A stretch of 64,000 bases of DNA, taken from positions 1,248,001-1,312,000 of the forward strand of contig CAVOKF010000007.1 in NCBI GenBank assembly GCA_963696385.1, written 5' to 3'. This DNA comes from an uncultured delta proteobacterium (GTDB lineage: Bacteria > Myxococcota_A > Polyangia > Polyangiales > Polyangiaceae). The notes under the pieces were generated by a model. It saw nothing but the letters and a program-made list of their open reading frames with translations. It did not search any database and was not told where the DNA came from. This document shows, piece after piece, positions 2,049 to 50,457 of the stretch (the first letter of the stretch is position 1; each line of letters starts with the position of its first letter). The translations under genes were made by a program, and so were the position numbers.

Positions 2049-3764
2049 TCAGCGCACGCGGAACGCCTCCGCGTATTGCGACGTGTGCGCGTAGGCAGGG
2101 CCAATCCAGACGCGACCGATTTTGGAAACGCACGACGGGTCTGGCCCAACGAAGCTCCTAAAGAAATCCAGCTCGCGTCCGAGCTCGAAGGTGTCGACCA
2201 GATAGGTCACCCCGCTCTCTCGCCAGTAGGCGCACAGGTCGTGGCGCTTCGTTTGATAAAAATCCCACGAGTTCACGAGGCCGTCGAGATTGACGGCCGA
2301 TCGCCCCGACAAGTAGCCAATGGTGCCTGCATTCCATGCGCCCACTCGAGCATCGTTCGGCACGTTGGCTCGAACCCATTGCGCTGCGGCATAGAGCGGC
2401 TCGCGCGAGAACCCGAGAAGCGCCTCTTTTCGCCACTGGGTCAAGGTGCGCGCGGAGGCAAGCAGAACTCCGCAGCAGGCCGCGCTCGAAAACAAGTAGG
2501 CGCGTGACGACCCTCTCGGGCTCCCTAGCGCTCGAGACGCGCGTCGGGCGGCCGTCTCCCCAATCGCCGCGAGCAGCATCGCGCCGAACCACGGCTGAAT
2601 CACGTAGTACCAGCGCTGAAAACTGTAGCCATCATGGAAGGCAAACCCATAAAGAGAGACCTGGAGAACGCCGAAGAGGACGACCGGACCCCAGGGGAAC
2701 CGTGAGGAAACCCGCGGGCGCGTAGCCCCCGCGACCACGGGCTCCTCTGCGCGAGCCGGACGTGGCCCGCCGGTAGCGTGGAGGACGGACCACAGCCATG
2801 CGGCGGGAGCCCCCACGGACCCGGCTGCAAGAAAGAGCACGTACGCATGTTTCATGTGACCAACAGGCCAAACGCCGTTGACCAGTTTGGCAGCCATCCA
2901 TCCGTTCGCCTGGTAGTGCCGATCGTCGTAGAGAAGTTGCACCGACCAATCGCGCTTAATGAATCCGTTGATGGGCAGCAGGTGACCAAAGAAGTGAACG
3001 TTGACGACCATGTAGGACAACACGGCCGCCAGGGGAGGCACACCCAGCGCGAGCAGGCGCCGGGCGCCCGCCATCGTCGGGCCGCCGCGAAGCTCCTCGA
3101 CGCCCAACGCCGTGAAGAGACATCCGAAGAACAGAATGTTGTCCAAGCGAGCCAGGAACGCCAGACTCAGAAGCGCGCCGAGGGCGAGGTGCGCGGTCCA
3201 TGCGGCCGGGCCGTCCGAGAACCGCGTCCGATAGCAATGAACCACCGCGAGGATACACGCACCATTCAGGCTGTACTCCAGCCCGGACAGCGGCAGCCGG
3301 TAAAGCAGTTGAACGTGGACCCAAAGCAACGCCGCGAGGATCGCCCCGGAGCGACTGAGATCGTTGCGCGCGATGCGATAGGTCAGGTCCACACCAATCG
3401 CCATCAGAATCGCCTGCAAAAGAACGGCGAGAATGAGCGCAATATCGATCGCCGACGTGAGCCAAAAAATGGGCACAAGGCAAAGGAGCCAGAGCGGGTG
3501 GTAGCCGTTCGTGGGGTGGAGGCCGTCGAAGGTCGAGCCCCGACCACGCGCAATCTCTTCGGCGATTTTCAGATAATAAAAACCGTCGTCGTAGGTCAGG
3601 CTCGTGCTGCCAACGGTCAGCGCCTCTCGGATACCCAAGCCGGTCAACGATCCATCGAGGCGATCGGAATGTACGCCCGCGATTACGAAGGCCGCCGCAA
3701 CGACGAGGCTGTAGAGAGCCAACCCGGCCCGGGCGCGGCGATCGATCGAGTCATCCGATCTCAT
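2049..3764 (-). CDS. GT-C-type integral membrane glycosyltransferase (ArnT/PMT/Aft-like)
   Basis: N-terminal TM then DDGFYYLKIA...TFDG..PTNGYHPLW; SGLE and LARLD motifs; many TM helices; C-terminal AGTIGYLS..NLDGLVN domain. ATG 3764 overlaps the end of the upstream gene. Confidence 0.7.
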   Translation of the reverse strand: MRSDDSIDRRARAGLALYSLVVAAAFVIAGVHSDRLDGSLTGLGIREALTVGSTSLTYDDGFYYLKIAEEIARGRGSTFDGLHPTNGYHPLWLLCLVPIFWLTSAIDIALILAVLLQAILMAIGVDLTYRIARNDLSRSGAILAALLWVHVQLLYRLPLSGLEYSLNGACILAVVHCYRTRFSDGPAAWTAHLALGALLSLAFLARLDNILFFGCLFTALGVEELRGGPTMAGARRLLALGVPPLAAVLSYMVVNVHFFGHLLPINGFIKRDWSVQLLYDDRHYQANGWMAAKLVNGVWPVGHMKHAYVLFLAAGSVGAPAAWLWSVLHATGGPRPARAEEPVVAGATRPRVSSRFPWGPVVLFGVLQVSLYGFAFHDGYSFQRWYYVIQPWFGAMLLAAIGETAARRASRALGSPRGSSRAYLFSSAACCGVLLASARTLTQWRKEALLGFSREPLYAAAQWVRANVPNDARVGAWNAGTIGYLSGRSAVNLDGLVNSWDFYQTKRHDLCAYWRESGVTYLVDTFELGRELDFFRSFVGPDPSCVSKIGRVWIGPAYAHTSQYAEAFRVR

Positions 3765-4545
3765 GACGATCCGTAGCGACACGCCGGCGAAGGAGAGTCC
3801 GCTTCACCCAGGCGGTGTGCCGCATCGCATCGGCGACAATGAAGCGCAAGCGCGCCGCCGCGACGCACTTGCTGACGCGAAGTGCAACGGGGGTGGAAAG
3901 GTCGCGGCGCATAAACACGGCATTGAACTGATTCCGACCACGCTGACCGTCGGTGCCCAACTCAATGAACCGCGCGGCGTGAAGGAGCGCGTGGATCTCC
4001 GGATAAAGTACTTGTTCCAGGGCAACGCAAGGCTCGGTTTCGACCTCCACGTGAACGAGCTGGACGTGGTGAAGGACGCCGGCCGCCCCCCGCAGCGCCT
4101 CGTACGCCTTTCCCTCTACGTCGGTCCATAGGGCGATTCGTGGATCGGCAAGTCGCTGGCCGCCGAGAAAGGAGTCCAATCGCGTGGTTCTGACAACGAC
4201 GCCATCCGGCGCTTCCAGCTCCCCGTAGCGCCTGTGGAGAGAGCTCTGCCCCCGCTCCCCGTTGACGGTCGAATAGTCCGCCTTCACGACGAAAAACTGC
4301 CCTTCGCCGTCGTAATCCGTCGCGGCGAGAGGGACGACTTGAATGTTCTGCTTTCGGAGGTGCGCGTTGGCCTGCATCTGACGAAGGTTTTCGGGGTTCG
4401 CCTCGAAGGCAAACACGCTCGCCTGAGGCATCGCGGCCCGAAACGCAAGAGCGTCGTCGCCGTTCATGGACCCGACGTCGCAGACCGCCGTAATGCCCAT
4501 TTCCGCGAGCAACCGGATGAATAGGCGTCGCGTGTTGAGCCTCAT
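3751..4545 (-). CDS. FkbM-family SAM methyltransferase
   Basis: VCDVGSMNG, FAFEANPEN, TRLDSF, WTDVEGKAYEALRG, VHVEV motifs; ATGA coupling to the upstream GT2. Confidence 0.85.
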   Translation of the reverse strand: MRLNTRRLFIRLLAEMGITAVCDVGSMNGDDALAFRAAMPQASVFAFEANPENLRQMQANAHLRKQNIQVVPLAATDYDGEGQFFVVKADYSTVNGERGQSSLHRRYGELEAPDGVVVRTTRLDSFLGGQRLADPRIALWTDVEGKAYEALRGAAGVLHHVQLVHVEVETEPCVALEQVLYPEIHALLHAARFIELGTDGQRGRNQFNAVFMRRDLSTPVALRVSKCVAAARLRFIVADAMRHTAWVKRTLLRRRVATDRHEIG

Positions 4546-10067: not shown

Positions 10068-11004
10068 TCACTCTTTCCCCCATTCGCCGAGCGGGCGGCC
10101 GACCACAAGCTTGAAGCGGGCGGGTTCCCGTGAGCCGCGCAGGCGAGCCACGTGGGGCTTGAGCCACCACCGAATCCCATACCAAGGCTCAATAAACTCC
10201 CAGCGCAATCCGAGCTGTGGCTCCAATGCGGCGAGCCGCTCGTAGGTGAGGTAGCCCTCGCTATGGAGGGCGTTTCCGCGAAACCCGTAGCGGCGCTCGA
10301 AGTCGTTCTCGCGCTCCTGTACCATTTGCGCGCCACTGGACGGGTCGCGATACAGGGGCGAATCCATGATCACGATGCGGCCTCTCGGCGAAAGGACCCG
10401 TAGGGCTTCGCGGAGGGTCGAGGTGTAGTCCGCGGCGTAATGAAAGGACGCGTTGTAGATGACCAGGGCGATGCTCCGGTCGCAAAGGGGCAAGCGATCG
10501 AACTCGGCCAGCAAAGACGAAAAGGCGCAGTCGTAGTGGCGGTGGACGCCTAGACCGTCGAAGTCGTTGGTGACGAGAATCGACCGCGGCGACGTGATGT
10601 CCGCGGAGTGCGAGTCGATAGGCAAGCCAGCCGAGGCCGCTTCCCAGGTCCAGGATGCGAAGCGGCTCGCGCTCCTGGCGCTCCATCGGCTGCACCACAC
10701 CGCGCAGCAGAGATCGGAAGCTGCGTGACCGAACGGCCCACTCGTAGGCGCGCTTTCGAGACAGGTCCCGGTACGGGAGCGCTTGCAGATGATCCCGACG
10801 CTGCACCCGCCGGCCCTCGGCGGCCCGCACCGTCTCGTACTGCGCGACGAATTCGCGAAACGCGTCCTGTCGTCCCTCGGCCATCAGACCCCAGATTCCG
10901 CCGTCGCGCCGAAAGGTCGCGCCGCAGCGCGGACAACGGCGGATCCCGCTTGGCTCGGGCGTCAACGCGGCGTGGCACGACGGGCACGCCAGCACGGCGG
11001 CCAT
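10068..11004 (-). pseudogene. Class I methyltransferase with N-terminal Trm112-like Zn ribbon, frameshifted at ~10578
   Basis: LACPSC...RCPRCG, ILDLGSGLGW, HVAAVD, then one extra base (GATTCTC), then LVTNDFDGLG...YNASFHY...LSPRGRIVIMDSP. Joins track ORFs 10261..11037 and 10068..10700. Confidence 0.8.
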
Positions 11005-11192
11005 CGAGCCGTCGTCGGATGTCGGTGAGTCGGGCACGAGAGCGAGCTTGGATCGAAGGGGGCGAAACCGAAAGGGCCTGGACCGGTCGACCCAACGTGC
11101 GCGCGTCTTTCGAACGACACGCGGGGGGCGCGGCAGCGCGGACTCAGAAATCGCCTGCCGAAGGCGAAAGACCGAGGTACGGTCTCCTCGGC

Positions 11193-12707
11193 GTGGCCCG
11201 AGTCCTCTTTGCGCACGGTCATCTTCTGCGGCGCGACACCAAGCAGTTCGCGATCGGCAAGCCCTATCCGCCGCTCGCCACGCTCTTCGCGGCGGCCTAC
11301 GCGCGCTCGCTCGGCCACGATGTGGGTCTGTACGACCCCATGCTCAAGGACGATACGTCCGATTTTTCGACCGCCCTGGACCGCGAGCGCCCGGACGTCG
11401 TGGTCCTCTACGACGACGCGTTCAACTGGTTTACGAAGATGTGCTTGTCCCGCATGCGCGACGCCGCATTCGCCATGGTGGGCGAAGCACGCGAGCGGGG
11501 TCTGCCGGTGATCGTGGCGGGCCATGACGCAGCGGACGCGCCGGAGGCCTACCTGCGATCCGGCGCGTCCTTCGTGATCTTGGGGGAAGGCGAACTGACG
11601 CTCGGCGAGCTTCTCGGCTCTTTCGAAAAAGCGCGGGGGCATGTCGACGAGGTGCGCGACGCAGCGATCGCGGGCATCCCGGGCCTCGCGGTCCTGGACC
11701 ATGGCTTTGTCCGGCGTACCGGGTCGCGCAAACTGCTGAAGGATCTCGACGCGCTTCCGCTTCCAGCGTGGGACTTGGTCGACATCCCGAGCTACCGGCG
11801 GTTTTGGCAGCGCCGGCACGGATACTTCTCGCTGAACGTCGTGACCACGCGCGGCTGTCCCTATCTCTGCAACTGGTGCGCCAAACCAACCTCTGGAAAC
11901 ACGTACCACACGCGGTCGCCGGCCAACGTCCTGGCCGAATTGCAGCTCTTGCGCGATCGGTACGCGCCCGATCATCTCTGGTTCTGCGACGACATTCTGG
12001 GGCTCAAGTCGCAGTGGCTCGTCGCCTGGTCGGCGGCGGTCGCGCAGGCCGGTCTTGCCCTGCCCTTTCTCTGCCAAACGCGCGCCGACTTGATGACCGA
12101 TGCCAACGTCCGTGCCCTGGCGCGCGCCGGGGCCCAGGAGGTGTGGCTGGGCGCCGAGTCGGGCTCTCAGCGGATTCTGGACGCCATGGAAAAGGGGATC
12201 ACCGTCGAGCAGACGCGGGCTGCCGTCGCGCGCTTGCGCGCCAACGGCGTGCGGGCGGGGCTCTTTCTGCAGTTTGGCTACAGCGGAGAGGGCTGGAGCG
12301 AAGTGCAGGCGACCCGCGCGCTCGTGCGCGAATTGTTGCCCGACGACATCGGCATCTCGGTCAGCTACCCGCTTCCGGGGACCCGCTACCACGCGCAATT
12401 GGCGGGGCGCCTCGGAGAGAAGCGCAACTGGAGCGAAAGTGACAATCTGGACCCGCTCGTCTCGAGCCGCCACTCGCGTGGCTTCTATCACGAGCTAGCA
12501 CGCGTCGTGCATGCAGAGTTGCGCGTCCTTCGTGGGACCCGGGCTCTGAAGACGCTTCTGCGGCGGCCGCTCGACTTCGACGCCCGCCGGGTTCGCCATG
12601 TGGCCGGGGTGCGGCATGCCGGGCCATGGCTTATCCATCGACTGCGTCTCGAGGCGGAGCGGCGGCGGCCAGGGTCGACGATTGACAGGACCGGCGTGAC
12701 AGCCTAG
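11193..12707 (+). CDS. Cobalamin-binding radical SAM protein (#2)
   Basis: PYPPLATL, AGHDAAD, GEGE; TTRGCPYLCNWC (CxxxCxxC); GAESGSQRIL; YPLPGT. GTG 11193 chosen because the extension to 10608 is antisense to another gene. Confidence 0.9.
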   Translation: MARVLFAHGHLLRRDTKQFAIGKPYPPLATLFAAAYARSLGHDVGLYDPMLKDDTSDFSTALDRERPDVVVLYDDAFNWFTKMCLSRMRDAAFAMVGEARERGLPVIVAGHDAADAPEAYLRSGASFVILGEGELTLGELLGSFEKARGHVDEVRDAAIAGIPGLAVLDHGFVRRTGSRKLLKDLDALPLPAWDLVDIPSYRRFWQRRHGYFSLNVVTTRGCPYLCNWCAKPTSGNTYHTRSPANVLAELQLLRDRYAPDHLWFCDDILGLKSQWLVAWSAAVAQAGLALPFLCQTRADLMTDANVRALARAGAQEVWLGAESGSQRILDAMEKGITVEQTRAAVARLRANGVRAGLFLQFGYSGEGWSEVQATRALVRELLPDDIGISVSYPLPGTRYHAQLAGRLGEKRNWSESDNLDPLVSSRHSRGFYHELARVVHAELRVLRGTRALKTLLRRPLDFDARRVRHVAGVRHAGPWLIHRLRLEAERRRPGSTIDRTGVTA

Positions 12708-12742
12708 TGTTCAGGATTAGCTGAAGCGCGAGGGAGTGACCC

Positions 12743-12874
12743 ATGACCCGACACATCGATAAACTCTGGCTCGTGCTTTTGGCGCTGGCCATCGGCACGG
12801 TCGTGGCGTGCAGCAGCAGCGACACCTCGCCGGGGGGATCGGACGAAACCCCCGACGCGATGAGCGGGGGCTGA
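12743..12874 (+). CDS. 43-aa small lipoprotein (not in the ORF track)
   Basis: MTRHIDKLWLVLLALAIGTVVA-CSSSDTSPGGSDETPDAMSGG*. GAGGGAG SD-like sequence upstream; signal-peptidase II architecture with lipobox VVAC; fills the gap after rSAM #2. Confidence 0.7.
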   Translation: MTRHIDKLWLVLLALAIGTVVACSSSDTSPGGSDETPDAMSGG

Positions 12875-12897
12875 GAGCTCGGAACCGGAAAGAGGCC

Positions 12898-14757
12898 TCA
12901 CGGGGCCCTCTCCAGAATCGCTCGAGCGTTGCGGGTGATCGCGCTCTTTGCGGGCCCCTGCGCAAGGCGCGCAAGATGGTCCCGATCCGCCCGCGCTGCT
13001 CCGACGTCCCCTTCTTGGATGGATGCCTGCGCTCGAAGATCAAGAGCCTCAGGATAGTCCTCTAGAAGTCCGATCGCCTGATCGGCGGCCCATCGTGCGG
13101 CCGCAGGGTCCTTCAACGCGAGCTCGGCGGCCGACAGGGCGGCCCATGCGTTGGCCGAATACGGCTCCAGTGCACGGACCTGCTCCGCGGCATGCACGGA
13201 AGCCGCTGGGCGTCCCGCGCGGAGCAGCAGCTGGGCGGTGAGCAGGCGCGCCGTGAAGTCGTTGGGCGTGGCCTCGAGGGCACACTTCAGCGCAGCGAGT
13301 CCTTGTTCGGCTCCCGCGGGTCCGCGGTCTGCCCGAATGCTGCGTTCGGCCCGACCCACCCACCAACTGCCGCGCACGGCTCGCTCGGCCCGGACGGCGG
13401 CGCAGGCCACGAGGACCACGCCGAGCACAACGACCATGGCACCGCCGACGCGGCCCTTGCGGCGCACGGTCCGATCCGGCACGGCGACGGCGACGAGACC
13501 GAGGGCCAACCCGGCCAGACACAGCGTGCCCGGCATCTCGAGAGGGAAACTGGATAGCGACATCACGCCCAGGGCCACGAGCCCACCCGCCGCGGCCGCT
13601 GTGCACGCGCGCCCGTCCGCATCGGCCGTCCGCAGCGAACGGCGCACGGAAGCCGCCACCGCACCGACCCAACAAAGGAGTGCAGTCAGCCCGACCATAC
13701 CGGTCTCCGCGGCCCGCTCGAGCAGATCGTTGTGGGCTTGCCGCGGCACCACCGTGGGGCTGAGTACGCCATCGCGCATCGCGCCAGGCTCCGCGTAACG
13801 CGGAAAGACGACGGGCCAGTTGCCTGGCCCGACACCGACGAGGGGATCCTCGCCCACCATCGACAGCGTGCGCCGCCACAAGCCGAGGCGCGTTCTTACG
13901 GCCGTCGATTGCGCGTCGACGCTCTCCTGCAGCACCTCGACGACGCCCTCGTACCGTTTGGAGTCGCCCGCGTCGCGGGGATTGAAACGGCCCGGCAGCG
14001 TCGCCGCCATCCCCGCCACGAGCCCCACGCCGATCGCGACGGCGACCGACGACCACGACAGCCGTATCCGGGCCAGCCACAGGAACACGCCGAGACCACA
14101 CGCTGCGCCGAGCCACGCACCGCGCGTCCGGGTCACGGCCAAATACACAATCTGGAGCGCGAGCGACGTCCAGAGGACCCTGCGAAGGCCTCGCGGCCGA
14201 CATCGCACCGCCGCACCTACGCCGAGGGGCAGTGCCATGGCGATGGCTTCGGCGGCCAGGTTCCGGTTGCCGAACGTCGATCCGGGCTTGCTGATGACGG
14301 GGATGCCGAGCGGCATCCACTCGACGTGCTGCAGGAGCCCCGTGGCCGCGACGACCGCGGCCGCGATGGCGATGGCCTCGAGCACGCGCTGGCGTGCCGC
14401 AGGCGCATCACTCAGAACGCTCACGCCGCAGGCAATCCCAAAGAGCGACCCCCACCGCGCCAGCGCCGCGAGGGCGTAAGGGGCCCCCGGAGTTCCGGCG
14501 GCAGCGGCGGCCCACGCCAGTGCCGTCGTGGCAAGCACCCCGATCACCGCTGCGGTCATGGGCCCAGTCCAGCGAGGGCGGCCCGTGAAAAAACGCTGAA
14601 GGGCGAATGCGAAGAAACCGAGCGACGCGGCCACCTCGAGTGCAGCGAACTTCGGCACGAGGAAGGGCGCGTGCAACGCGGGCGAGTAAAGCAAGAGGAC
14701 CAGAAAAGCCGCAGCGCCGCTCGCCAACGCCGCGAGCCCCGTAGGCCACGTCCTCAC
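12898..14757 (-). CDS. O-antigen ligase family (Wzy_C) membrane protein with C-terminal TPR-like region
   Basis: GSTFGNRN, TRTRGAWLG, RLGLW, GVGPGNW, QAHNDLLE motifs; Ala-rich helical C-terminus; GTGA coupling at 14757/14754. Confidence 0.85.
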   Translation of the reverse strand: MRTWPTGLAALASGAAAFLVLLLYSPALHAPFLVPKFAALEVAASLGFFAFALQRFFTGRPRWTGPMTAAVIGVLATTALAWAAAAAGTPGAPYALAALARWGSLFGIACGVSVLSDAPAARQRVLEAIAIAAAVVAATGLLQHVEWMPLGIPVISKPGSTFGNRNLAAEAIAMALPLGVGAAVRCRPRGLRRVLWTSLALQIVYLAVTRTRGAWLGAACGLGVFLWLARIRLSWSSVAVAIGVGLVAGMAATLPGRFNPRDAGDSKRYEGVVEVLQESVDAQSTAVRTRLGLWRRTLSMVGEDPLVGVGPGNWPVVFPRYAEPGAMRDGVLSPTVVPRQAHNDLLERAAETGMVGLTALLCWVGAVAASVRRSLRTADADGRACTAAAAGGLVALGVMSLSSFPLEMPGTLCLAGLALGLVAVAVPDRTVRRKGRVGGAMVVVLGVVLVACAAVRAERAVRGSWWVGRAERSIRADRGPAGAEQGLAALKCALEATPNDFTARLLTAQLLLRAGRPAASVHAAEQVRALEPYSANAWAALSAAELALKDPAAARWAADQAIGLLEDYPEALDLRAQASIQEGDVGAARADRDHLARLAQGPAKSAITRNARAILERAP

Positions 14758-16910
14758 GGCCCGGCCGGAGCCGGATCGCCCGGCCTCGGTTGCGAATCGG
14801 AGGCCGCCCCCCGCGCGCGCAGTTCGTCCAGGCGCGCCGCAAAGCGGTCCATGACGCGCTGCCGGTGGTCGGACAGATGCAGCTTGAGGATGCCGGCGCC
14901 GAGAATCACGTCCCCGCTGATCGCCGCCGCGGCGCGGCGCCGAAGGTGAAAGCGCCAACCCCAGCGAAGGATCGTTTCGAGCGCGGGCGCGATGGGTCCG
15001 AGCGCCCTCTCCCCGAAGGGTCGCCGTGCGACCCGCGGCGGGTCACCCGCCCCCGCCAGGGCCGATTCGGACGCGGAGTAAGCGGCTCGCGGGGCGAATG
15101 CCGGGAAGAAGGGCCGAACCCACTCCTCGTTGCTGCGGCACAAGGCCTCGTAGGTCTCATGACCCGTGAACGGCAGGGCGGACACGAGCTGATGCGCCGT
15201 GAAGAGGTCGCGGTGATAGGCGATGGTCAGCTCGCTCTCGTCGACCAAATAGTTCGGGCAGATGAGCCGCCGGGTGCTCGTCAGCTTGGTGGCGAGAAAG
15301 AGCGCCGCATAGGCCGTATACGCTCGCCCGCGTGCCGTGACCACGAAGAAGTCCACGTCTGGCCGCGCGCCCGGGTTCTTGTGCGCAACTCCCCCCGACA
15401 CGATGAGGGCGCGAACGAAGGGCAACGCGGCGAGCGAGGACAAAGCCGCGCGGTTGCGCTCGAGAAGGGTCCGGGTGAGCGCCTCCCTCTCGGGCATCGC
15501 GTCCACGAGGGGCTCGCGGCCCTTCAGGACGAGGTAACCCCTCGGATCGAACGTGAGAAGTGCCGTGAGGGCCCGGCCCGCCGAGATTCGACGCAGCTCG
15601 GACTCGTCGAGCCGAACGCCGAGCGACGCCGTCAATGCCTGATGGATGGGCAGCGGCGAGTCGAAGATGTCCGCGTACACGACGGTGGCGAGCAGTCCCC
15701 ACTCGGCTGTGCTGAATCCGGGCGGCACGGGGACCAACGGCGGTGGAATGACCGTCTTGCCGGATCCCGTGATCGGGGAGCCGTTCGAGCGGGGTCGCAC
15801 CCGCTCCGGAGCAATCCGTCGGGCTCGTGCCCAGAGGGCCTCGGCGGTGCGCGTCCAGGAGAAATGCTGCGCGCGAAGGGGGCCGGCGGCGCGCATGCGG
15901 GCAAGGCCGTCGGGGTCGCTCAAGAGCTCCGAGAGGGCTCGCGAGAACGCCGCATCGTCGCCGGGCGGCACGAAACGCGGGACGTCACCGCCGACTTCGC
16001 GCAAGGCCGCGACATCGGAAGCGATCACCCCTGTCCCACACGCCATGGCCTCCAGGATGGGCAGCCCGAAGCCCTCCAGCCGGGCGGCGAAGACGAACAG
16101 ATCGGCACCCGTATAGAGCGTAACGAGGTCCGGCTCGGTCACGTAGCCGAGCCAGTGGACGCGTCGGCCGGCTGTCCGGGCCTCGAGCGTGCGTACGAGC
16201 GTGCAATCTTTCCAGCCGCGACCGCCCGCGACGACGAGGTCGTGGCCCTGTGCTTCGGGCCCCAGGCGATCGAAGGCGCGCAAAATGGTGATCAGATCCT
16301 TGCGCGGTTCGAGGGTCCCCACCGTGAGCACGTACGGCCGCGTCAGCCCGTACCGGGCGCGGACGTCGGCCACGACGTCGAGGCTTGCGGGGCGACACGA
16401 CGGATGCGCGGCCCCGGGCAAAAGCGCGATGCGCTCGCGACGGACGCCGAGCAAACTGAGGATGTCGCGCTCCGACGTTTCGGAAACCGTTCCGATGACC
16501 GACGAGGCGGCAACCGACTGCCTCAATGTCGCGGCCATCAGCAGACGCTTGCGCATCGTGAAGTGCTCCGGCATGCGCAAGATCGCCAGGTCATGCACGA
16601 TCAGGATGCTTGGGCACGGCGACGCGAACGGCACGGCGTAGTTCGGAAAGACTCCCACGTCGACGCCCGTCTCGGCCAAGAGGCGCGGGGCGTCGGTTTG
16701 GATCCACAGCGCGCGTACCCCTACGCCGCGAACGTGAAGGTACGGCGCCCAGCGCGTCGCCAGATCGGGCGCCGGCTGGCGGTTCGACAAGAGCACCACC
16801 TCGTCGCCCGCGCGACGCGTCTGGAGCAGCGCGTCGACGAGGTGCTCCGTATAGTATCCGACCCCCGTGCGCGTGGCATTGCAGGTCGTGACTTCGATGG
16901 ATAGTCTCAC
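14754..16910 (-). CDS. GT4 glycosyltransferase fused to a Pol-beta-like nucleotidyltransferase domain
   Basis: N-half: TGVGYY, VHDL, VGTLEPRK, EGFGLPILEAMACG. C-half: YADIFDSPL...SGGVAHKNPGARPDVDFFVVT (hG[GS]...DhD)...CPNY...DLFTAHQL. One open frame. Confidence 0.8.
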   Translation of the reverse strand: MRLSIEVTTCNATRTGVGYYTEHLVDALLQTRRAGDEVVLLSNRQPAPDLATRWAPYLHVRGVGVRALWIQTDAPRLLAETGVDVGVFPNYAVPFASPCPSILIVHDLAILRMPEHFTMRKRLLMAATLRQSVAASSVIGTVSETSERDILSLLGVRRERIALLPGAAHPSCRPASLDVVADVRARYGLTRPYVLTVGTLEPRKDLITILRAFDRLGPEAQGHDLVVAGGRGWKDCTLVRTLEARTAGRRVHWLGYVTEPDLVTLYTGADLFVFAARLEGFGLPILEAMACGTGVIASDVAALREVGGDVPRFVPPGDDAAFSRALSELLSDPDGLARMRAAGPLRAQHFSWTRTAEALWARARRIAPERVRPRSNGSPITGSGKTVIPPPLVPVPPGFSTAEWGLLATVVYADIFDSPLPIHQALTASLGVRLDESELRRISAGRALTALLTFDPRGYLVLKGREPLVDAMPEREALTRTLLERNRAALSSLAALPFVRALIVSGGVAHKNPGARPDVDFFVVTARGRAYTAYAALFLATKLTSTRRLICPNYLVDESELTIAYHRDLFTAHQLVSALPFTGHETYEALCRSNEEWVRPFFPAFAPRAAYSASESALAGAGDPPRVARRPFGERALGPIAPALETILRWGWRFHLRRRAAAAISGDVILGAGILKLHLSDHRQRVMDRFAARLDELRARGAASDSQPRPGDPAPAGP

Positions 16911-16991
16911 GCCGCAGCGAGTAGCTAGCACAATCCGCTGGGACGGGGCCGCAGACAGACGCGCGTCCAACGTCTAGAAAGTTGTACGTCC

Positions 16992-18815
16992 ATGCTGGCC
17001 GAACAAGCGACGAGCGCGCGCGATCCGTTCTTGATCCGCCTGGCTCGAGGCCTGCTGGTCGCTCTCGCCCTCGTGCTTCCGTTCGAGGCACCGCTCTTTC
17101 GCCTCGGGCCCCTGCAGATCACGACGGTCGAGCTCGTGCTCTACGCCCTGCTCGCCGCGTGGGCCGTCGCGTTGGCGTCCGATGGGATCGGACATCGCGC
17201 GGCCGTGTCCAAGGCCATGGCGGCGCTCCGCACGGACACGATGGTCCAGGCGGCGATCGTCTGGGCGACGGTCAACTTTGCATCCGCCCTGGTGGCTCCC
17301 TCGTACCGAAGCGCGGCGCTCAAGTTCGCGCTGCGAACCTTGAGCGGCGTGCTCGCGTTTTTCGCTGTCCGCTCTCTGGCTCGCCGTTCGGACACCGGCC
17401 GGGTTCTGATCCTCGCGCTGTTGTCGGGTGCCCTGGTGTCGGCGACCACCGCGGTGGTCGAGTCGCTCGTGCCGGCCAGTGCGTCGCTCTGGGAGCCATT
17501 TCGTGCCGGGCACTTCACGACCTTCGGTTTGATGCGAGCGAGCGGCGTCTTCGCGTATCCGACAATCGGGGCCATGTACTGGGAGGCGGCGGTGCCGCTG
17601 CTGGTCGTCGCGCCGTTTCTCGGCAAGCGACCGCGCTCCGAACGGCGTGCGTGGGGCGGCGCAGTATCCGTCGTGCTGGGCAGCGCCCTGCTCGTCGGGG
17701 CCATTCTTGCCAGCGCGACGCGTTCCGCACTCGTCGGCGCCGCGGTAGTCGCTGCGGCCATGGGCGGCCTCGGCTTGAGATCCGGGGTCGCGATCCCGCG
17801 CGCCGCCACCGGCGCTCTGGCCGTCGTCGCGCTGCTGTCGGCGATTCCGCTCGTGACCCCAGGCTCCGACTCGCTGCTCGGTCAAAGGCTGCGTTGGTGG
17901 CACGACGACACCTGGTTTCGCGCCGACTACAGGGTCGGTACCGCACCGCATGCGGTCTCCTTTGGGGAGGTCTTCTCCGTTCCGGTCACGGTCACCAATA
18001 CGGGCACGCTCGGCTGGACGCGGGCAGGGGCCCACGCCTTCCACCTCGCATACCACTGGGTAGAACCCGATGGCTCCATGTCGCCCGAGGATTTCGAGGG
18101 AATGCGCACCGAACTGCCGGCGGACGTGCCACCGGGCGGCGCGATCGAAATCGTCGGTCGAGCGCGGGCGCCCGCCACGGCGGGGACCTACCGGCTGCGC
18201 TGGGACCTCCTGCAGGATGACGTGACCTGGTTTAGCCAACGGGGCAATCCGATGCCCGAGCAACAGGTCGACGTGACGGCCGAAGCGACCGAAGTGGCCA
18301 CCGAGAACGAAGGACGGCCTGCCGCATCGTCGGTCGACGTCGCAAGCCCCGATCCGTCTCTACCGCGCAGGGTGCTGTGGCGAGCCGCCGTCGCCCTTTG
18401 GCGCACCCGACCGCTGCTGGGCGTTGGCCCCGACAACTTCCGGCGCCGCTACGGGGCCGTGCTCTCGCCTGCCCCGAACGGCCAGTCCGACGCGGACACG
18501 AGCATCCACGCCAACAGCCTCTACTTTGAAACGCTCGCCGACCTTGGGCTCGCGGGTGTGGCGGCGCTAGCCCTGATCGGCTTGGGCCTCGTGCGGCGGG
18601 TGCGGGCTCACCATTCGGCGAACGGCCTTTCGGGCCTCGCCTCCGGCGTGGCGGCCGGGGCTTTCTTCGTGCACGGATGGCTCGACTACTTCTGGGAATT
18701 CACACCGCTTTTTGGCCTATTCTGGGTGCTGTTGGGATGGACGGCAGCAACGACTGCGACGCAACCGTCAGCCGAAGCGCTCCGAGGCAGCACGCCGTCA
18801 GGGCAAGCTCCGTGA
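16992..18815 (+). CDS. O-antigen ligase family protein with inserted Ig-like (NBR1-like) domain
   Basis: RASGVFAYP, SATRSA, GVGPDNF, HANSLYFETLADLG. Insert: VPVTVTNTG..W...LAYHW...RTELPADVPPG...GTYRLRWDL...WFS. Confidence 0.8.
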   Translation: MLAEQATSARDPFLIRLARGLLVALALVLPFEAPLFRLGPLQITTVELVLYALLAAWAVALASDGIGHRAAVSKAMAALRTDTMVQAAIVWATVNFASALVAPSYRSAALKFALRTLSGVLAFFAVRSLARRSDTGRVLILALLSGALVSATTAVVESLVPASASLWEPFRAGHFTTFGLMRASGVFAYPTIGAMYWEAAVPLLVVAPFLGKRPRSERRAWGGAVSVVLGSALLVGAILASATRSALVGAAVVAAAMGGLGLRSGVAIPRAATGALAVVALLSAIPLVTPGSDSLLGQRLRWWHDDTWFRADYRVGTAPHAVSFGEVFSVPVTVTNTGTLGWTRAGAHAFHLAYHWVEPDGSMSPEDFEGMRTELPADVPPGGAIEIVGRARAPATAGTYRLRWDLLQDDVTWFSQRGNPMPEQQVDVTAEATEVATENEGRPAASSVDVASPDPSLPRRVLWRAAVALWRTRPLLGVGPDNFRRRYGAVLSPAPNGQSDADTSIHANSLYFETLADLGLAGVAALALIGLGLVRRVRAHHSANGLSGLASGVAAGAFFVHGWLDYFWEFTPLFGLFWVLLGWTAATTATQPSAEALRGSTPSGQAP

Positions 18816-20028
18816 GGACGGTCGCCCACGCCGCGCCGGGCCCATGGGCCCGTGGAATGAGGGCGAGGTCGAGGAGGACGTTGAGCACGAGCATCGCCAG
18901 AGCCAACCGTTGGGTCATCGTACCCATGTCCCGGGCCACCAAGAAGTGCGTGAGGCCGTAGTTCAGAAAAAGCAGGGGCATCCCCAACGCGAGTACGCGC
19001 ATCGAAGGGACGGCTCGGCCAAAGCCCGTGCCGAAGACCCCCCGGATGAGAGGCGTCCCGCCCACGAAACACGTCGCTCCGACCAAGAGGCCGAGTCCGA
19101 GCAGCAAGAGGCCGATCTGCCGCTCGAGGCGGCGCTGGATCGGGGGATGGCCATGCGCGCGCGCGAGCTGCGGGAACGTGACCGATAGAAGCACCGACGG
19201 CAGGATCATCGCCCCCTCGAAGATCTTGAACGCGGCTCCGTACAGTCCGAGTTCGGCGTCCCCAGCCATCGAGCGCAAGAACAGAGTGTCGATTTTGAAA
19301 TAGAGCATCGAGCAAAGCCCGGCAAACCAGAGCGGCAACGCCTGGGCGAGCGCCGCTTTGGCCAGCACCCGATCGAGCTTCGGGCGCTCGATCCGCACCT
19401 GTCTCGCGAACGGATGCAGCCGTCGCAAGACCACCGCGCCGTAGAGACCCCCTCCCAGATTCGCCGCGGCAATGCTGCTGCACAAGCCGATGAGCGATCG
19501 AGCCACCGTGAGGGTGGTCAATCCGGCGACGCCAAACAAGAGCGCCCGGAATGCGTTGACCCGCGCTTCGTCCCCGAAGCGTTCGTAACCGCGGAAAATC
19601 GCGGCGAAATGCTCGAGGAACGCATTGACGAGGGCCGCGATGCCCAGCAGGATTATGGCTGCGCGTGCCTCGCCGCGCGCTGCGAACATCGCCACGGCCA
19701 GTACGGCGACCGCGTACGGGAGCGCAGCGAGGCTTCGGATGGCCAGCCCGACTTGGACGATTCCCCGGCCTGCGAGCAACTGCGCGTCGCTGTCGACCCG
19801 GCACCGCGCCAATGCGCGTGTCGTCCATACGCCGAGCCCGAGGTCCGTGCCGAGCGCGAGCAGGGCCGTTACCGTCGAAGCGAAGACGAACCGGCCAAAT
19901 GCGGCCTCGCCGAGCACAGGCGCCACGGCAACCACCACGACCAGTCGGCAGACCCGTTCGAGGCCGATGGAGAGGGCCTTGAGCGAAAGGTTTCGGATCG
20001 CTCCGCCCAGCATGCGGCCCGGCGCCAT
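18700..20028 (-). CDS. Wzx-type oligosaccharide flippase (MOP/PST family)
   Basis: LGEAAFGRF, TDLGL, KIDTLFL...ELGLYGAAFKI, FPQLAR, LIPRAHGPGAAWAT; about 12 hydrophobic segments. Confidence 0.88.
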   Translation of the reverse strand: MAPGRMLGGAIRNLSLKALSIGLERVCRLVVVVAVAPVLGEAAFGRFVFASTVTALLALGTDLGLGVWTTRALARCRVDSDAQLLAGRGIVQVGLAIRSLAALPYAVAVLAVAMFAARGEARAAIILLGIAALVNAFLEHFAAIFRGYERFGDEARVNAFRALLFGVAGLTTLTVARSLIGLCSSIAAANLGGGLYGAVVLRRLHPFARQVRIERPKLDRVLAKAALAQALPLWFAGLCSMLYFKIDTLFLRSMAGDAELGLYGAAFKIFEGAMILPSVLLSVTFPQLARAHGHPPIQRRLERQIGLLLLGLGLLVGATCFVGGTPLIRGVFGTGFGRAVPSMRVLALGMPLLFLNYGLTHFLVARDMGTMTQRLALAMLVLNVLLDLALIPRAHGPGAAWATVLTELALTACCLGALRLTVASQSLLPSIPTAPRIGQKAV

Positions 20029-20035
20029 CCTGCGT

Positions 20036-22027
20036 TCAGCCTCGAAGCTCCCGAAGCGTGTCGCGCAAGACCGCCGAACCTGTGCGTGCGAGGATTCGAG
20101 CGTCCAGTGCAAGGCTCCATTCGCGCAGGTACTGGAGATCCAAACGCAGCCGCTCGGCGATGGACGACTTGTCCCCACGCAGGCCGTTCACCTGAGCCCA
20201 TCCCGTGATCCCCGGTCGCATCAGATGGCGAGTGCGGAAGCCGGGCAGGTCCCGTTCGATGCGCGCGACACGCTCGGGCATCTCGGGGCGCGGGCCGATG
20301 AGGCTCATCTGCCCTTTGAGCACGTTCCACAATTGGGGCAGCTCGTCGAGGCCCAGGGGCCGCAACACGCCACCCACACGCGTCACCCGGCCCCGACCAT
20401 CCATCGTGCGCAGCTTGACCAACGTAAAGGGGCGTTGGTGGAGGCCCGTACGACGCTGATAAAAGAGCGCTGGCCCGGGCGATTCGAGTCGGATGAGAGT
20501 CGCCATGGCGGCCATGAACGGTGCGGTGAGCGCGAGCCCGGAGGCCGCCACCGTGACGTCCACGAACCGCTTCACGGCCCGGCCAGCCCAGGGGTGGCTG
20601 TCCACGCGGCGCCGCGTCGTCGAGGGGTCGGTCCCGTTGTCCGGCGCGATCGGGTTGTCCGGCGCGATCGGGTTGTCCGGCGCGATCGGGTGACCCGGCT
20701 CGATCGGGTGACCCGGCTCGATCGGGTGACCCGGCTCGATCGGGTGACCCGGCTCGATCGGGTGACCCGGCTCGATCGCGTCATCCGGCGCCGTCGGCCT
20801 GTCCGGCGCGGTCCCATCGGCCGCACGTACCGTCCGAGCGAAGGCCGCAGCACTCATGACTCCGCTCCCATTGTGACCGTCGCTTTTCTGCGCGTTTCGA
20901 CGGGCGCGCCGCGCGTCCTCCACGGCTTCGGCGAATCTTCGTTCGAAGTGCCCGCGGTCAAAGCGCTTCGCGAAAGCCTGGAGCCGGGCTGGATCGAACG
21001 AGTGCTGCACACGCGCGAACCGGTCCAGGGCTTGCCGGACCGCCGCCACAGTCGGCGTCTCGATGAGCAGACCCGTCTCTCCGTCACGAACGATTTCGAG
21101 CGCTCCGCCTTCGGCGACTGCGATCACCGGCTTTCCCGCCGACAGAGCCTCGGCCATCACCATGCCGAAGTCGTCGACCCCGGTATGCAAAAGGGCTCGC
21201 GAGTTCGCGCAGAGCGCGTCGAGCTTGGCCTCGTCCACGCGCGGCAGCAGCGTCACATTCGGACCTGCGAGCCGTTCGAGTCGTGCACGCTCGGGCCCTT
21301 CACCGACCACGACGAGCCGCTCCACACGTCCCTGAAATGCGCGCAAAGCAAGATCGACCCGCTTGCTTGGAACGAGCGCCGATACCAAAAGAAACGGTGC
21401 CTCGCCGTCGACGGGAGCGGCACGCGCCGCGGCGCGCTCGAAACGGCAGGTATCGATCGGCGGCTCGATCACGAGCGCGTCGCGCTGGTAATAGCGCTGG
21501 ATCCGGTCGCGTGTGTACGCGCTGTTGGCAATCAAGACGTGGGGCCGCGCTGCAGCCACCGCCTCCCAGCGGCGCAAATAATGTGCCGTGCTCCGAAACG
21601 CGGCGCGCCCGAGCCTCCCCGCCGGCACACGAGCCTCGTAGGCTGGCTGCGCCTCCCGCACGTAGCGGATCGTCGAATGGAGATACGCGACGTGCACGGC
21701 CGAGGGCCGTGCGATGGCGCCCATCGCGACGCAATGGCTGCTCGAGACGACCAAGGCGTACGGGGCAAGATTGAAAGACTCCACGGCGAGCGGAAAGAGC
21801 GGCAGGAGCGCCCGGAAACGCCCGCTGACAAATGGGGCCCTCGCCACGCGATCGATCGGTGAGGTCGTGGCCCGTCGCTCGGCGAGTGCCGGCGACAGGC
21901 CCGCTGCGTTCCGCGTGAGAGTAAAGATATGCGCCTGCGGGAACACTCCGCAGAGCACCTCGAGAACACGCTCACCACCCCTCATGGTCGTGAGCCAATC
22001 GTGAACGATAGCCACGGACTCGTGCAT
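20036..22027 (-). CDS. GT4 glycosyltransferase in frame with a bacterial sugar transferase (phosphoglycosyl transferase)
   Basis: N: VAIVHDWLTTMRGGERVL, SSSHCVA, DDFGMVMAE. C: KRFVDV, YQRRTG, KLRTM, LDELPQLWNVLKGQMSLIGPRPE, PGITGWAQVNG. A possible internal start lies at ATG 20857. Confidence 0.85.
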   Translation of the reverse strand: MHESVAIVHDWLTTMRGGERVLEVLCGVFPQAHIFTLTRNAAGLSPALAERRATTSPIDRVARAPFVSGRFRALLPLFPLAVESFNLAPYALVVSSSHCVAMGAIARPSAVHVAYLHSTIRYVREAQPAYEARVPAGRLGRAAFRSTAHYLRRWEAVAAARPHVLIANSAYTRDRIQRYYQRDALVIEPPIDTCRFERAAARAAPVDGEAPFLLVSALVPSKRVDLALRAFQGRVERLVVVGEGPERARLERLAGPNVTLLPRVDEAKLDALCANSRALLHTGVDDFGMVMAEALSAGKPVIAVAEGGALEIVRDGETGLLIETPTVAAVRQALDRFARVQHSFDPARLQAFAKRFDRGHFERRFAEAVEDARRARRNAQKSDGHNGSGVMSAAAFARTVRAADGTAPDRPTAPDDAIEPGHPIEPGHPIEPGHPIEPGHPIEPGHPIAPDNPIAPDNPIAPDNGTDPSTTRRRVDSHPWAGRAVKRFVDVTVAASGLALTAPFMAAMATLIRLESPGPALFYQRRTGLHQRPFTLVKLRTMDGRGRVTRVGGVLRPLGLDELPQLWNVLKGQMSLIGPRPEMPERVARIERDLPGFRTRHLMRPGITGWAQVNGLRGDKSSIAERLRLDLQYLREWSLALDARILARTGSAVLRDTLRELRG
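20636..20815. repeat. 18-bp tandem repeat: 8 near-perfect and 2 degenerate units
   Basis: 3x GTTGTCCGGCGCGATCGG (20636-20689) then 5x GTGACCCGGCTCGATCGG (20690-20779, last unit with 1 mismatch). Encodes five PIEPGH-type and three PIAPDN units on the minus strand. Confidence 0.97.
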
Positions 22028-48223: not shown

Positions 48224-49262
48224 GGTGTCGCTTGGAGAGCAACGCTCGTGCCCGTCCGCGCCGCGCATCGCCCACGTGCTGGGCTCGCAGGGTCCTTGCG
48301 CCGAGGCCTGCCCTCGAGGGTCGGCCTAAAACGGCGGCCGGCGCGCGGTCACCGTCACGCGCGACGGTCGTCGGCCGTACCACGTGCAGATCGCCCCTGC
48401 AGGGGCGCGGTGTGCGTGCCCACCGCAGGGGCGCGATGTGCGCCGGGCAAGCAAGCCTTGCCGACTCCATGCGAACGTTTCGGCACGCACCGCTGTCGGG
48501 CGCGAGCGCAAGCTTTGCACCGCCGGAACGCAAGAGGTGCGGCAACGCAAAGCTTCAGCTCCTTCGCTTGCTGCGCGCAGTCCGTCCGATGGGCTTTGAC
48601 ACCGCGGCCCGTGCCCGCCCGTCGGCCGCCGTCAGAACAGCGCGAGCGTCTTTCCCTTCGGAAGCTCCGCCGCCGGATCGCTCACCCGCTCGATGAGCTT
48701 GGGTTCGTCGTTTCGGACGCTGTTCACGGCGAAGCTCACGGGGTAGCAGGTCAGCCCGTCCGCCGTCGCCCCTGCAAGGATCGGGCGGGCGTCCTTCACG
48801 CTCGAGTCGAGCCAAGCCGCGAAGCTGTCGGGCGCAAGGACGACGGGCATGCGGTCGTGCAAGGTGGCCACGACCCCTTGCGACGGCGCCGTGATGATCG
48901 CGCACCCGCCGGTCGAGTCATAGATGCCGGCCATCGCCATCGGCGCTTTGTCCCGGCGTACGATGAGATACGGGAACTTCTTCCCACCGAGCGAGCGCCA
49001 TTCGTAGAAGCCATCCACGACCACGAGGCAGCGGTTGTCGCGAACCTTGTCCCGGTAGATGGGCTTGGTCAGCGACTCCACTCGCGCGTTGATGCCGGCC
49101 ATGCGTGGGTCGGGCATCCTGAGGCCCCAGCGCAGCAGTTCGAGGTGACGGGGATGGCGAATGACCGGGATCGCTTCGCTGGGCGCCAGGTTGTATCGGT
49201 CGCAAAGGTCGTCGGCAACCGACTCGAGGTCGAACACTTGCTTTAGAGCCTCGGCGGGGCTA

Positions 49263-50457
49263 GTACCCCGATTCTACGGAATGGAAGGGTAGAGGCGGCG
49301 CAGCTTGATGCGTGCGTCCGCCGTGGTGAAGCGCCAGTTGACCTTGCGGTCGGGTCGCGAAGCCTGCCACGCGGAGACGATCGTGTGGAGCGCGCCGATG
49401 CTGCCGACGCGCTGGTCGAGACACTGTATCGATAGGGTCGAGAGGAAGATTTCGGCGACGTTGAGCCAACTGCCGTGCTTGGGGGTGTGGTGAACCTCGA
49501 ACCTCTCGACCAGACGACGAGCCTCTTTGGGCGCGAATGCTTCGTACAGGCACGAAAGATCGTGGATGTTGAGGTTGTCCATGACCAAGACGATGACGGT
49601 CGCGGTTGCGTAGGTCTCGTCGGACAGGCGGGCTAAGAAATGCGCCATGTCGACGGCCGTGCGTCGCTCGGTCACTTCGACGACGGATTGCCCGGTCAGC
49701 GGTTCCACGGCAGCGAAGATGTTGGCTGTGCCGCACCGCTTGTATTCGTCATCGACGCGGGCCGGTGTGCCGGGGCTCGCAGGAACGGGCTGGCGGGTGT
49801 GCTCGAGCAACTGCTTGCTGGTCTCGTCGAGACAGACCTGCGGCCGGTCCGGATCATAGGGTCGATGGTAAACGTCGAGCACATCCTCCATGCACTTTAC
49901 GAACGCCGCGTTTTCCTCAGGCGGAATGCAGAAGCGCTCTACAAGCCAGGGCTTGATTTCGTTTTTTTTAGACCGCGCTGGACCGTGCTCGGGCTGACGG
50001 AGTCGAACACCTTCAGCTCGACGAGTCGGTCCGCGAGAAGCGAGATGGTCCACCGTGCCCGCCCTGCGGGCGGCTCACTGCAAGCGATCTGAACCAGCCG
50101 CGCCTCCGAGGCCCCGTCGAGCTTTCGCGGCCGCGACGGGGTGTCTTGGGGCTTGCGCTCCAGGCACGCTTCGACGCCGCGCTCGCAGCAGCGCTTGCGC
50201 ACGCGCTCCACCGTGACGAGCCCGGCCTCCAAGTCGTCCGAGATTTCCTGATCGGTCAGCCCTTCGTCGGCTTTCAGCAAAATGCTTGCGCGAAGCCTTT
50301 TCAGGCCCGAGACGCGCTCACGCTTCACGAGCTGCGTCAGCGCCGCCCGCTCGTCCACCGTCAGATTCACTACGTAGCGCTTTTTCATGGCCCACCATGG
50401 AGCACGCCCTCGTCGCCATGGAAAGCAAAACCCGTCGCGTCAATGGATTCGAGGTAC
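49263..50457 (-). mobile_element. IS630-family insertion sequence, 1195 bp, TA target duplication
   Basis: Imperfect terminal IRs GTACCCCGATTCTA / GTACCTCGAATCCA; TA at 49261-49262 and 50458-50459; removing the element restores a single CTAG and the SRAP frame. Confidence 0.95.
49274..50388 (-). CDS. IS630 transposase (orfA HTH + orfB DDE, -1 frameshift at A8 run 49962-49969)
   Basis: orfA ends GLKKTKSS; the -1 frame reads KKNEIKPW...CLDE...MDNLNIH...TPKHGSWLNVAE. Confidence 0.92.

Follow-up and report, generated by a model that had tools for sequence, protein, structure and literature searches.

What is made from an open reading frame (ORF) of 43 codons that lies inside a polysaccharide gene cluster of an uncultured myxobacterium, between a gene for a B12-binding radical SAM protein (rSAM2) and a convergent gene for a Wzy_C protein (WzyC1), and which of these neighbours does its product serve? 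The window analysed here is a stretch of 64,000 nucleotides (GC 66%) from a delta proteobacterium of the family Polyangiaceae (GenBank assembly GCA_963696385.1, contig CAVOKF010000007.1, positions 1,248,001 to 1,312,000), and the ORF occupies its positions 12743-12874. An original prediction, made from the letters of the window, had noted a Shine-Dalgarno-like sequence, a lipobox, a 35-nt gap behind rSAM2 on the same strand and a mature part of 21 amino acids, all of which read as claimed, and had proposed a lipid-anchored scaffold for O-glycosylation or a substrate for radical SAM tailoring. We find that the ORF is a real, conserved gene, which confirms the observation and supports the proposed interpretation in part. 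Judging from its sequence, it very probably encodes a micro-lipoprotein that is exported, lipidated at Cys23 and cut before that residue. Our tentative view is that the peptide may serve the WaaL-like Wzy_C enzyme or enzymes of the cluster, either as their dedicated lipid-anchored acceptor or as a docking partner. The features on which the argument turns are the following:

11190-12707, + strand: rSAM2, B12-binding radical SAM protein (Pfam B12-binding and Radical_SAM; start near 11190)
12730-12736, + strand: Shine-Dalgarno-like GAGGGAG, 6 nt 5' of the peptide ATG
12743-12874, + strand: peptide ORF, ATG at 12743, TGA at 12872-12874, 43 codons
12743-12808, + strand: predicted signal peptide, residues 1-22, with basic n-region, Trp-Leu-rich h-region and lipobox T-V-V-A
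12809-12853, + strand: Cys23 (12809-12811, presumed lipidation site) and variable acidic Ser/Thr/Gly/Pro tether
12854-12874, + strand: C-terminal motif D-A-M-S-G-G and stop codon, conserved in the family
12898-14958, - strand: WzyC1 ORF, convergent Wzy_C protein assigned to 12898-14778 (Pfam Wzy_C, E 5.8e-20)

Conservation of the small ORF behind rSAM2

The rSAM2 gene ends with TAG at 12705-12707, and the peptide ORF follows on the same strand with a coding-like GC content of 0.57, 0.57 and 0.84 at the first, second and third codon positions. Orthologues of rSAM2 with 65-92% identity were present in 10 of the 24 same-genus genomes first searched, and each of the ten loci fetched carried a homologous small ORF behind the gene. 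Starting from the ligase side gave the same picture: a WzyC1 orthologue was found in 13 of 30 other species of the genus (a count that partly rests on two unpublished genomes, G010 and G330), and rSAM2 and the intervening small ORF accompanied it in all 13. The syntenic small ORF in related clusters that the original prediction had named as its check is therefore there. In the same-genus copies (n=11), the ORF has 41-50 codons, and its start lies anywhere from 20 nt upstream to 55 nt downstream of the rSAM2 stop; across all 45 species-level genomes in which homologous ORFs were identified, it has 41-60 codons. Pairwise differences between same-genus copies amount to 0.39, 0.31 and 0.48 at the three codon positions, the third being the most variable, and mean nonsynonymous divergence (pN) is 0.34 against a synonymous divergence (pS) of 0.54. 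Such mild purifying selection is as expected for what would be a signal peptide with an unfolded tail.

The gene had been described as hidden, which holds for the ORF track used at the time, from which it was absent, and fails for the public databases, where gene callers had already called relatives. A profile search of 5.8 billion public proteins recovered 67 clusters of 34-79 residues from metagenome-assembled genomes (MAGs) of Polyangiaceae, their members being named 'hypothetical protein' and, once, 'uncharacterized lipoprotein'.

Upstream signals and transcription

A purine-rich stretch precedes the ATG in all 11 same-genus loci, the window included, and a GGAG-type stretch lies 3-16 nt 5' of the start in 36 of 37 relatives. 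Further upstream, at the end of rSAM2, we noted the following feature:

12682-12710, + strand: promoter-like site, TTGACA (12682-12687), 17 nt, TAGTGT (12705-12710)

Its second hexamer overlaps the rSAM2 stop codon. The same layout, TTGAC[A/G], 16-18 nt and TAnnnT, recurs in 11 of 11 same-genus loci, and a second-family version reads TAGAC(G/A), 16 nt, TATACT. Scored with a script of our own, which is laxer than a standard sigma-70 scan, a site reaching at least 9 of 12 was present in 27 of 37 peptide upstream regions as compared with 43 of 7600 control windows from the same loci. A stricter sigma-70 and terminator scan of 12400-13500 returned no site of either kind, and TAGTGT matches the consensus at only 3 of 6 positions, so that the case for a promoter rests on conservation and on the laxer scoring.

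Contigs of environmental RNA libraries cover the gene:

12728-13310, strand not assigned: cover by metatranscriptome contigs, taking in the complete peptide ORF and reaching into the convergent ligase gene at its 3' end

Contigs from four RNA libraries, representing at most three studies, span 12735-13310, 12741-13247, 12742-13207 and 12728-13060; each differs from the window by 1-3 letters, and the peptide ORF is covered in all four. All begin within 12728-12742, a weak hint of a transcript end near the peptide gene. Within 11800-13800, contig cover is missing over most of 11867-12670 and beyond 13609, which we do not count as evidence. The contigs are unstranded and run 190-440 nt past the peptide stop, over the last ~137 codons of the ligase gene; the part beyond 12875 may represent overlapping convergent transcripts, or the cover may be that of the ligase 3' end. 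A hairpin 3' of the peptide stop folds no better than shuffled sequences (z 0.99), and a search of 12300-13700 against Rfam gave no match at E 1. The peptide gene probably has its own transcript.

The peptide family

Family-wide figures were derived from 98 distinct sequences. An Ala-Cys pair, set behind a basic and then a hydrophobic stretch, is invariant (98/98). In the window peptide, Arg3 and Lys7 are followed by W-L-V-L-L-A-L-A-I-G-T-V-V and the lipobox T-V-V-A-C, of which V-V-A-C fits the canonical pattern [LVI]-[ASTVI]-[GAS]-Cys with a Cys at residues 15-35, here residue 23; all aligned relatives share this build. Relative to the Cys, Trp occupies position -14 in 78 of the 98 and Leu positions -13 to -11 in 72-75, so that Trp-Leu-Leu-Leu opens the h-region, and Ser stands at +1 and at +2 in 85 sequences each. 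The n-region is basic throughout and group-specific in its wording (M-x-R-H-L-D-H-R, M-F-K-K-I-P-T or M-R-K-I-S-G-F).

The mature part has 17-37 residues, with a median of 3-4 acidic and no basic ones. Its tether is rich in Ser, Thr, Asp, Asn, Gly and Pro and varies in length by whole codons only. At the other end stands a motif, D-x-M-T-x-x, in which, counted from the C-terminus, Asp is found at -6 in 67 of 98, Met or Leu at -4 in 85, Thr or Ser at -3 in 97 and Gly at -1 in 73. The original prediction had stressed a Ser/Thr-rich mature part with 7 such residues. The window peptide actually has 8 (6 Ser, 2 Thr), and the feature conserved across the family is the C-terminal motif rather than Ser/Thr richness as such: a reading of the DNA of genome G865 by eye shows a peptide that is poor in Ser/Thr beyond the Cys and yet ends in M-T-G-S. 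The functional part of the molecule thus seems to be the lipid anchor together with the C-terminal motif.

No Pfam or NCBIfam family, known small-lipoprotein families included, matched the peptide at E 0.01, and a search of the ESM Atlas yielded no match at or above 0.9 (best score 0.87). The family is in none of the profile libraries searched, and we found no paper on it; its kin in kind are tiny lipoproteins and acceptor peptides. An early, narrower profile had given matches in other genera, which turned out to be N-termini of long lipoproteins, i.e. generic signal peptides, and were discarded.

Distribution and gene layouts

The 45 species-level genomes with the peptide comprise 14 of the window's genus, one of a second genus (G169) and 30 of a second family (f32). 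The carriers, uncultured myxobacteria of soil and peat whose genomes were all assembled from metagenomes, belong to two families of one class. Searches with E up to 1e-9 detected the peptide in 9 of 401 genomes of the order (window's genus and G169) and in 20 of 401 genomes of the class, namely 2 of the window's family and 18 of 71 of f32. When all 89 f32 genomes were searched, the peptide was detected in 21 (E 1e-9), rSAM2 in 29 and WzyC1 in 25; a further 9 peptides behind rSAM2, with weaker scores, came to light in local profile searches and by reading, bringing the f32 carriers to 30 of 89. The module of peptide, rSAM2 and WzyC1 is patchy, occurring in about half of one genus and one further genome of the window's family and in 6 of 19 f32 genera, and looks like an accessory cluster that has been gained and lost, or transferred.

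Five arrangements were distinguished. In the window's genus (14 genomes) and in G865, rSAM2 is followed by the peptide gene and then by the convergent WzyC1. In G169, two Ser/Thr kinase genes, a methyltransferase, an amidohydrolase and another methyltransferase gene stand between rSAM2 and the peptide gene, which again faces a convergent WzyC1; all five intervening genes are on the same strand (locus L085, 2905-9691). Three genomes show WzyC1, a convergent rSAM2 and, behind it, a paralogue of this B12 radical SAM gene with the peptide gene next in line, the paralogue being 32% identical to rSAM2 and 50% identical to a copy upstream of the window. In 23 f32 genomes the order is flippase, GT4, WzyC1, priming transferase, second Wzy_C gene (WzyC2), methyltransferase, rSAM2, peptide, which places the peptide directly behind rSAM2 and ~5 kb from WzyC1. 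Finally, G336 and G349 have an intact peptide gene with the motif, and rSAM2 was not found: no match in G336 even at E 1e-5, and none in G349 at E 1e-100, in genomes that are 73% and 91% complete, respectively. The cluster DNA of G336 is 88% identical to that of G334 up to the end of WzyC2, after which G334 continues with methyltransferase, rSAM2 and peptide and G336 with other genes; the G336 peptide gene stands alone, ~11 kb from WzyC1, and that of G349 is divergent and beside WzyC2.

Overall, the peptide gene lies directly behind rSAM2 on the same strand, with anything from a 20-nt overlap to a gap of ~170 nt, in 38 of 45 genomes from two families and two layouts, and it is convergent within ~400 nt of WzyC1 in 16 of 45, G169 included. 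It is found in or beside the same Wzx/Wzy-type glycan cluster in every genome where the context is readable. Within f32, rSAM2 is accompanied by the peptide in 28 of 29 genomes, the remaining locus being truncated at a contig end, as against 2 of 60 genomes without rSAM2; of the 25 genomes with WzyC1, 23 have the peptide, to which G865 can be added by eye. The five peptide genomes without a WzyC1 match either are fragmented or have a broken copy. One long-read MAG locus (L125, G357/G710) has GT4, WzyC1 and priming transferase genes that match in fragments only, due either to broken genes or to assembly indel errors, and an intact rSAM2 and peptide gene. Because the three genes come and go almost as a block, co-occurrence hardly separates the candidate partners, and because two genomes keep the peptide without rSAM2, it is tied equally well to the whole glycan cluster.

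The convergent WaaL-like Wzy_C protein

The protein encoded opposite the peptide gene combines a Wzy_C core with a tetratricopeptide repeat (TPR) domain:

12901-13392, - strand: C-terminal TPR domain of WzyC1 (residues 523-686 of ORF 12898-14958), predicted periplasmic; TPR families match in the G169 orthologue

By a simple hydropathy scan of our own, WzyC1 has 13 hydrophobic segments with positive-inside loops, an arrangement that places the TPR domain in the periplasm, and a large loop of 98 residues holding an H-x10-G stretch. A profile of ten WzyC1 orthologues matched in the Protein Data Bank (PDB) the O-antigen ligase WaaL (7tpg_B, E 7e-10) as well as TPR proteins, including O-GlcNAc transferase. 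The AlphaFold2 model (pLDDT 74, pTM 0.76) likewise found 7tpg_B as its best fold match (E 4.5e-5, TM 0.57 on target). A search for O-antigen ligase, tetratricopeptide and Myxococc- returned no relevant paper as far as titles and abstracts tell.

Next to the ligase gene, the module comprises four further conserved genes:

14754-16970, - strand: GT4 (Pfam)
16992-18815, + strand: WzyC2, second Wzy_C protein (Pfam)
18700-20178, - strand: Wzx-type flippase (Pfam)
20036-22027, - strand: GT4 fused to a Bac_transf priming transferase (Pfam)

This block (14754-22027) is syntenic in the same genus and reordered in the second family. No Wza/Wzc-type export genes were found within G000:C7 1228001-1312000, which makes ligation to an acceptor plausible.

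Possible roles of the micro-lipoprotein

The role that we favour, tentatively and from context, is that of a lipid-anchored peptide dedicated to the WaaL-like Wzy_C enzyme or enzymes, as acceptor or as docking partner. After export and cleavage, the window's product would be a 21-residue, acidic, unfolded periplasmic peptide held by its lipid, in which only the C-terminal D-x-M-(T/S)-x-x is conserved. The periplasmic TPR domain predicted for the convergent ligase could hold the short tail of this peptide, while the priming transferase, the GT4 enzymes, Wzx and the second Wzy_C protein would make an undecaprenyl-diphosphate-linked glycan, which the near-invariant Thr/Ser at -3 would receive. 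The polymer would thereby become attached to the envelope through a lipid-anchored glycopeptide. On this view, the products of the B12 radical SAM and methyltransferase genes would serve to decorate the glycan, and the peptide could do without them. The n-region, varying between groups, fits a plain signal peptide and not a recognised leader. Also in favour are the constant placement of the peptide gene in or beside the same cluster, its convergent position close to WzyC1 in 16 of 45 genomes, its persistence without rSAM2 in G336 and G349, and the WaaL fold and HX10G stretch of WzyC1. Several observations weigh against this proposal. In f32, some 5-11 kb separate the peptide gene from that of the ligase, whereas it lies directly behind rSAM2, and the three genes come and go nearly as a unit. 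The HX10G stretch is common to ligases and polymerases, according to PMC2932511, which describes its His as essential in WaaL of P. aeruginosa, and thus does not single out one of the two Wzy_C proteins as the ligase. The acceptor of the ligase might be no more than lipid A-core. Among the Pfam matches at E 0.01 there is neither PglL_A nor Wzy_C_2, the domains of PglL/PglS-type enzymes; PMC12645811 describes TfpO and TfpM as likewise devoid of them. Even the lipobox is not textbook throughout: of the sequences taken from genomes only 11 of 40 satisfy a PROSITE-like rule for lipoproteins, and of those from databases 55 of 66; the relatives that fail have Pro at -3 or Trp at -2 of the lipobox. 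The original prediction had also named a neighbouring GT-C enzyme as a partner. This PMT_2-like gene (2049-3782) scores 16.8 bits, below the cut-off of 26.1, and belongs to a variable part of the cluster, and is for these reasons a poor candidate.

Adjacency favours a different partner. The peptide might be a substrate of the upstream class B, probably methylating, rSAM2, which would act on or near the conserved Met-Thr while the peptide is still cytoplasmic, ahead of its export and lipidation, to give a ribosomal radical-SAM-modified lipopeptide with or without later glycosylation; we consider this possible, if rather unlikely. The position directly behind rSAM2 in 38 genomes, and behind the paralogue with rSAM2 next door in three more, speaks for it, as do the f32 co-occurrence of 28/29 against 2/60 and the block of methyltransferase and rSAM2 by which G334 and G336 differ. 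That the conserved part is a short C-terminal motif also fits, since several radical SAM peptide substrates have one. On the other hand, G336 and G349 keep an intact peptide without rSAM2, so that the peptide is not confined to genomes with the maturase; its gene has its own promoter-like site; its n-region is not conserved as a leader would be, and no recognition domain was seen in rSAM2; the ligase co-occurs with the peptide almost as well as rSAM2 does; and no paper was found that joins lipobox, radical SAM and precursor peptide. The two exceptions, the separate promoter-like site and the non-conserved n-region speak against a strict enzyme-substrate pair. A scenario that unites both partners, in which rSAM2 would tailor the Met-Thr tail and the WaaL-like TPR ligase would then build or hang a methylated polysaccharide on the lipid-anchored peptide, strikes us as improbable. 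Somewhat less probable than radical SAM tailoring, and more probable than this combination, is that the peptide stays unmodified and acts as an accessory micro-lipoprotein (subunit, tether or regulator) binding a periplasmic TPR or PDZ-like domain through its C-terminal tail, much as other tiny lipoproteins assist large envelope complexes. The short, acidic, unfolded tail with its conserved (T/S)-x-x end, the predicted periplasmic TPR domain of the neighbouring enzyme, the promoter-like site of the gene itself and its retention without rSAM2 in two genomes all agree with such a role, but no small-lipoprotein family of Pfam or NCBIfam matches, and the near-invariant hydroxyl at -3 is explained at least as readily by modification as by docking. 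Least of all do we expect that no peptide is made and that conservation concerns a promoter, an RNA that is not translated or the 3' UTR of the ligase transcript, with the ORF incidental. The RNA contigs, being unstranded and reaching into the ligase gene, would allow this, and a pN/pS of about 0.6 indicates mild constraint only. However, 98 sequences keep start, frame, stop, Shine-Dalgarno-like stretch, Ala-Cys and C-terminal motif, length changes come in whole codons only even though peptide identity falls to 26-45%, and neither an Rfam match nor local folding better than shuffles was found.

Comparison with known systems

According to PMC12645811, dedicated O-oligosaccharyltransferases modify Ser/Thr at the C-termini of pilins, and the genes of their substrates are often found close to their own. 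TfpO/PilO or TfpM with their pilins, and PglS with ComP, resemble the acceptor model on these points: a Wzy_C/WaaL-like membrane enzyme, a small exported acceptor often encoded close by and a C-terminal Ser/Thr target, the counterparts here being a Wzy_C gene beside the peptide gene and a near-invariant Thr/Ser at -3. They differ in that the putative acceptor is a lipopeptide of 17-37 amino acids and not a pilin, with the hydroxyl at -3 and not at the very end, in that the enzyme has a TPR domain, and in that adjacency is seen in only 16 of 45 genomes. General O-glycosylation by PglL, which prefers disordered regions (PMC12645811) and modifies periplasmic lipoproteins with disordered stretches rich in Ser, Ala and Pro, shares with our model the disordered lipoprotein target. 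Yet neither PglL_A nor Wzy_C_2, the domains of PglL enzymes, was found here, and the substrates of PglL are many and unlinked as opposed to one tiny linked gene. WaaL (PDB 7tpg) is the best solved relative of WzyC1 by both profile and fold, and WzyC1 too has an HX10G in its large loop, but WaaL lacks TPR, its acceptor is lipid A-core and not a peptide, and identity is only 21%.

Precursors of ribosomally synthesised and post-translationally modified peptides (RiPPs) that lie beside radical SAM maturases, such as class B methylases, are comparable in that the small ORF is on the same strand, next to the enzyme gene, and ends in a C-terminal motif. Here, however, the N-terminus reads as an export and lipidation signal and not as a conserved leader, the setting is a polysaccharide cluster, and the peptide persists without the enzyme in two genomes. 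With the known tiny lipoproteins, namely Braun's Lpp, the entericidins and LptM/YifL, the family shares size, N-terminal lipobox and presumed envelope location, but there is no sequence match, and its mature part is acidic, apparently unfolded and ends in a conserved motif.

Micro-proteins below annotation cut-offs are rarely linked to a pathway, and this one is locked into a cluster comprising Wzx/Wzy functions, a WaaL-like TPR ligase and B12 radical SAM enzymes. Should the peptide be an acceptor of the ligase, it would provide the first case of a lipopeptide dedicated to carrying a bacterial polysaccharide, and its tag of 20 residues could serve glycoconjugate engineering. If it is instead a radical SAM substrate, exported lipoproteins would join the known targets of class B enzymes. 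A peptide that is both tailored and glycosylated would be a ribosomal 'glyco-lipo-peptide' anchor, a mode of surface-polymer tethering not described in bacteria.

The rSAM2 gene and other features of the locus

The rSAM2 gene is contained in an ORF of 699 codons (10608-12707) whose 5' part extends beyond the real start of the gene. Counted from a start at 11130, the alignment with orthologues sets in at residue 19-22, and the first ~175 codons (10608-11190), which are antisense to a methyltransferase gene, have no in-frame match in relatives. Against NCBIfam, no model reaches its cut-off with rSAM2, the RiPP models staying far below theirs, and Pfam recognises B12-binding and Radical_SAM only, with no peptide-recognition domain seen. 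The methyltransferase gene on the opposite strand (10068-11037, - strand) is split over two frames by one extra base near 10578 and a compensated indel pair further on; its orthologue in G003 is an intact ORF of 322 codons, and the window copy is either a pseudogene or an assembly error.

According to Pfam, the first part of the cluster encodes the weak PMT_2-like membrane protein, an FkbM methyltransferase, a GT2 and a first B12-binding radical SAM protein, and the middle part GT4, three more methyltransferases and rSAM2, followed by the small ORF and the convergent WzyC1. In WzyC2, the match to the Wzy_C profile is confined to the last part of that profile, and a periplasmic insert of 226 residues weakly matches an Ig-like family (N_BRCA1_IG, E 0.002). 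The cluster extends into the 20 kb upstream of the window (L204, G000:C7:1228001-1248000), which contain genes for a GH26 glycosidase and a PIG-L deacetylase and two radical SAM genes, a third one of the B12 type (13037-14512) and one with a SPASM domain (17124-18386), which bring the total for the locus to four. The SPASM-domain gene (L204:17124-18386) was considered as a partner of the peptide and dropped: no more than 19 of the 37 genomes with the cluster have it, frequently on a different contig. Far from the peptide gene, a DDE_3 transposase gene (49277-50074, - strand) adjoins a gene for a SOS-response-associated peptidase (SRAP; 48635-49273, - strand).

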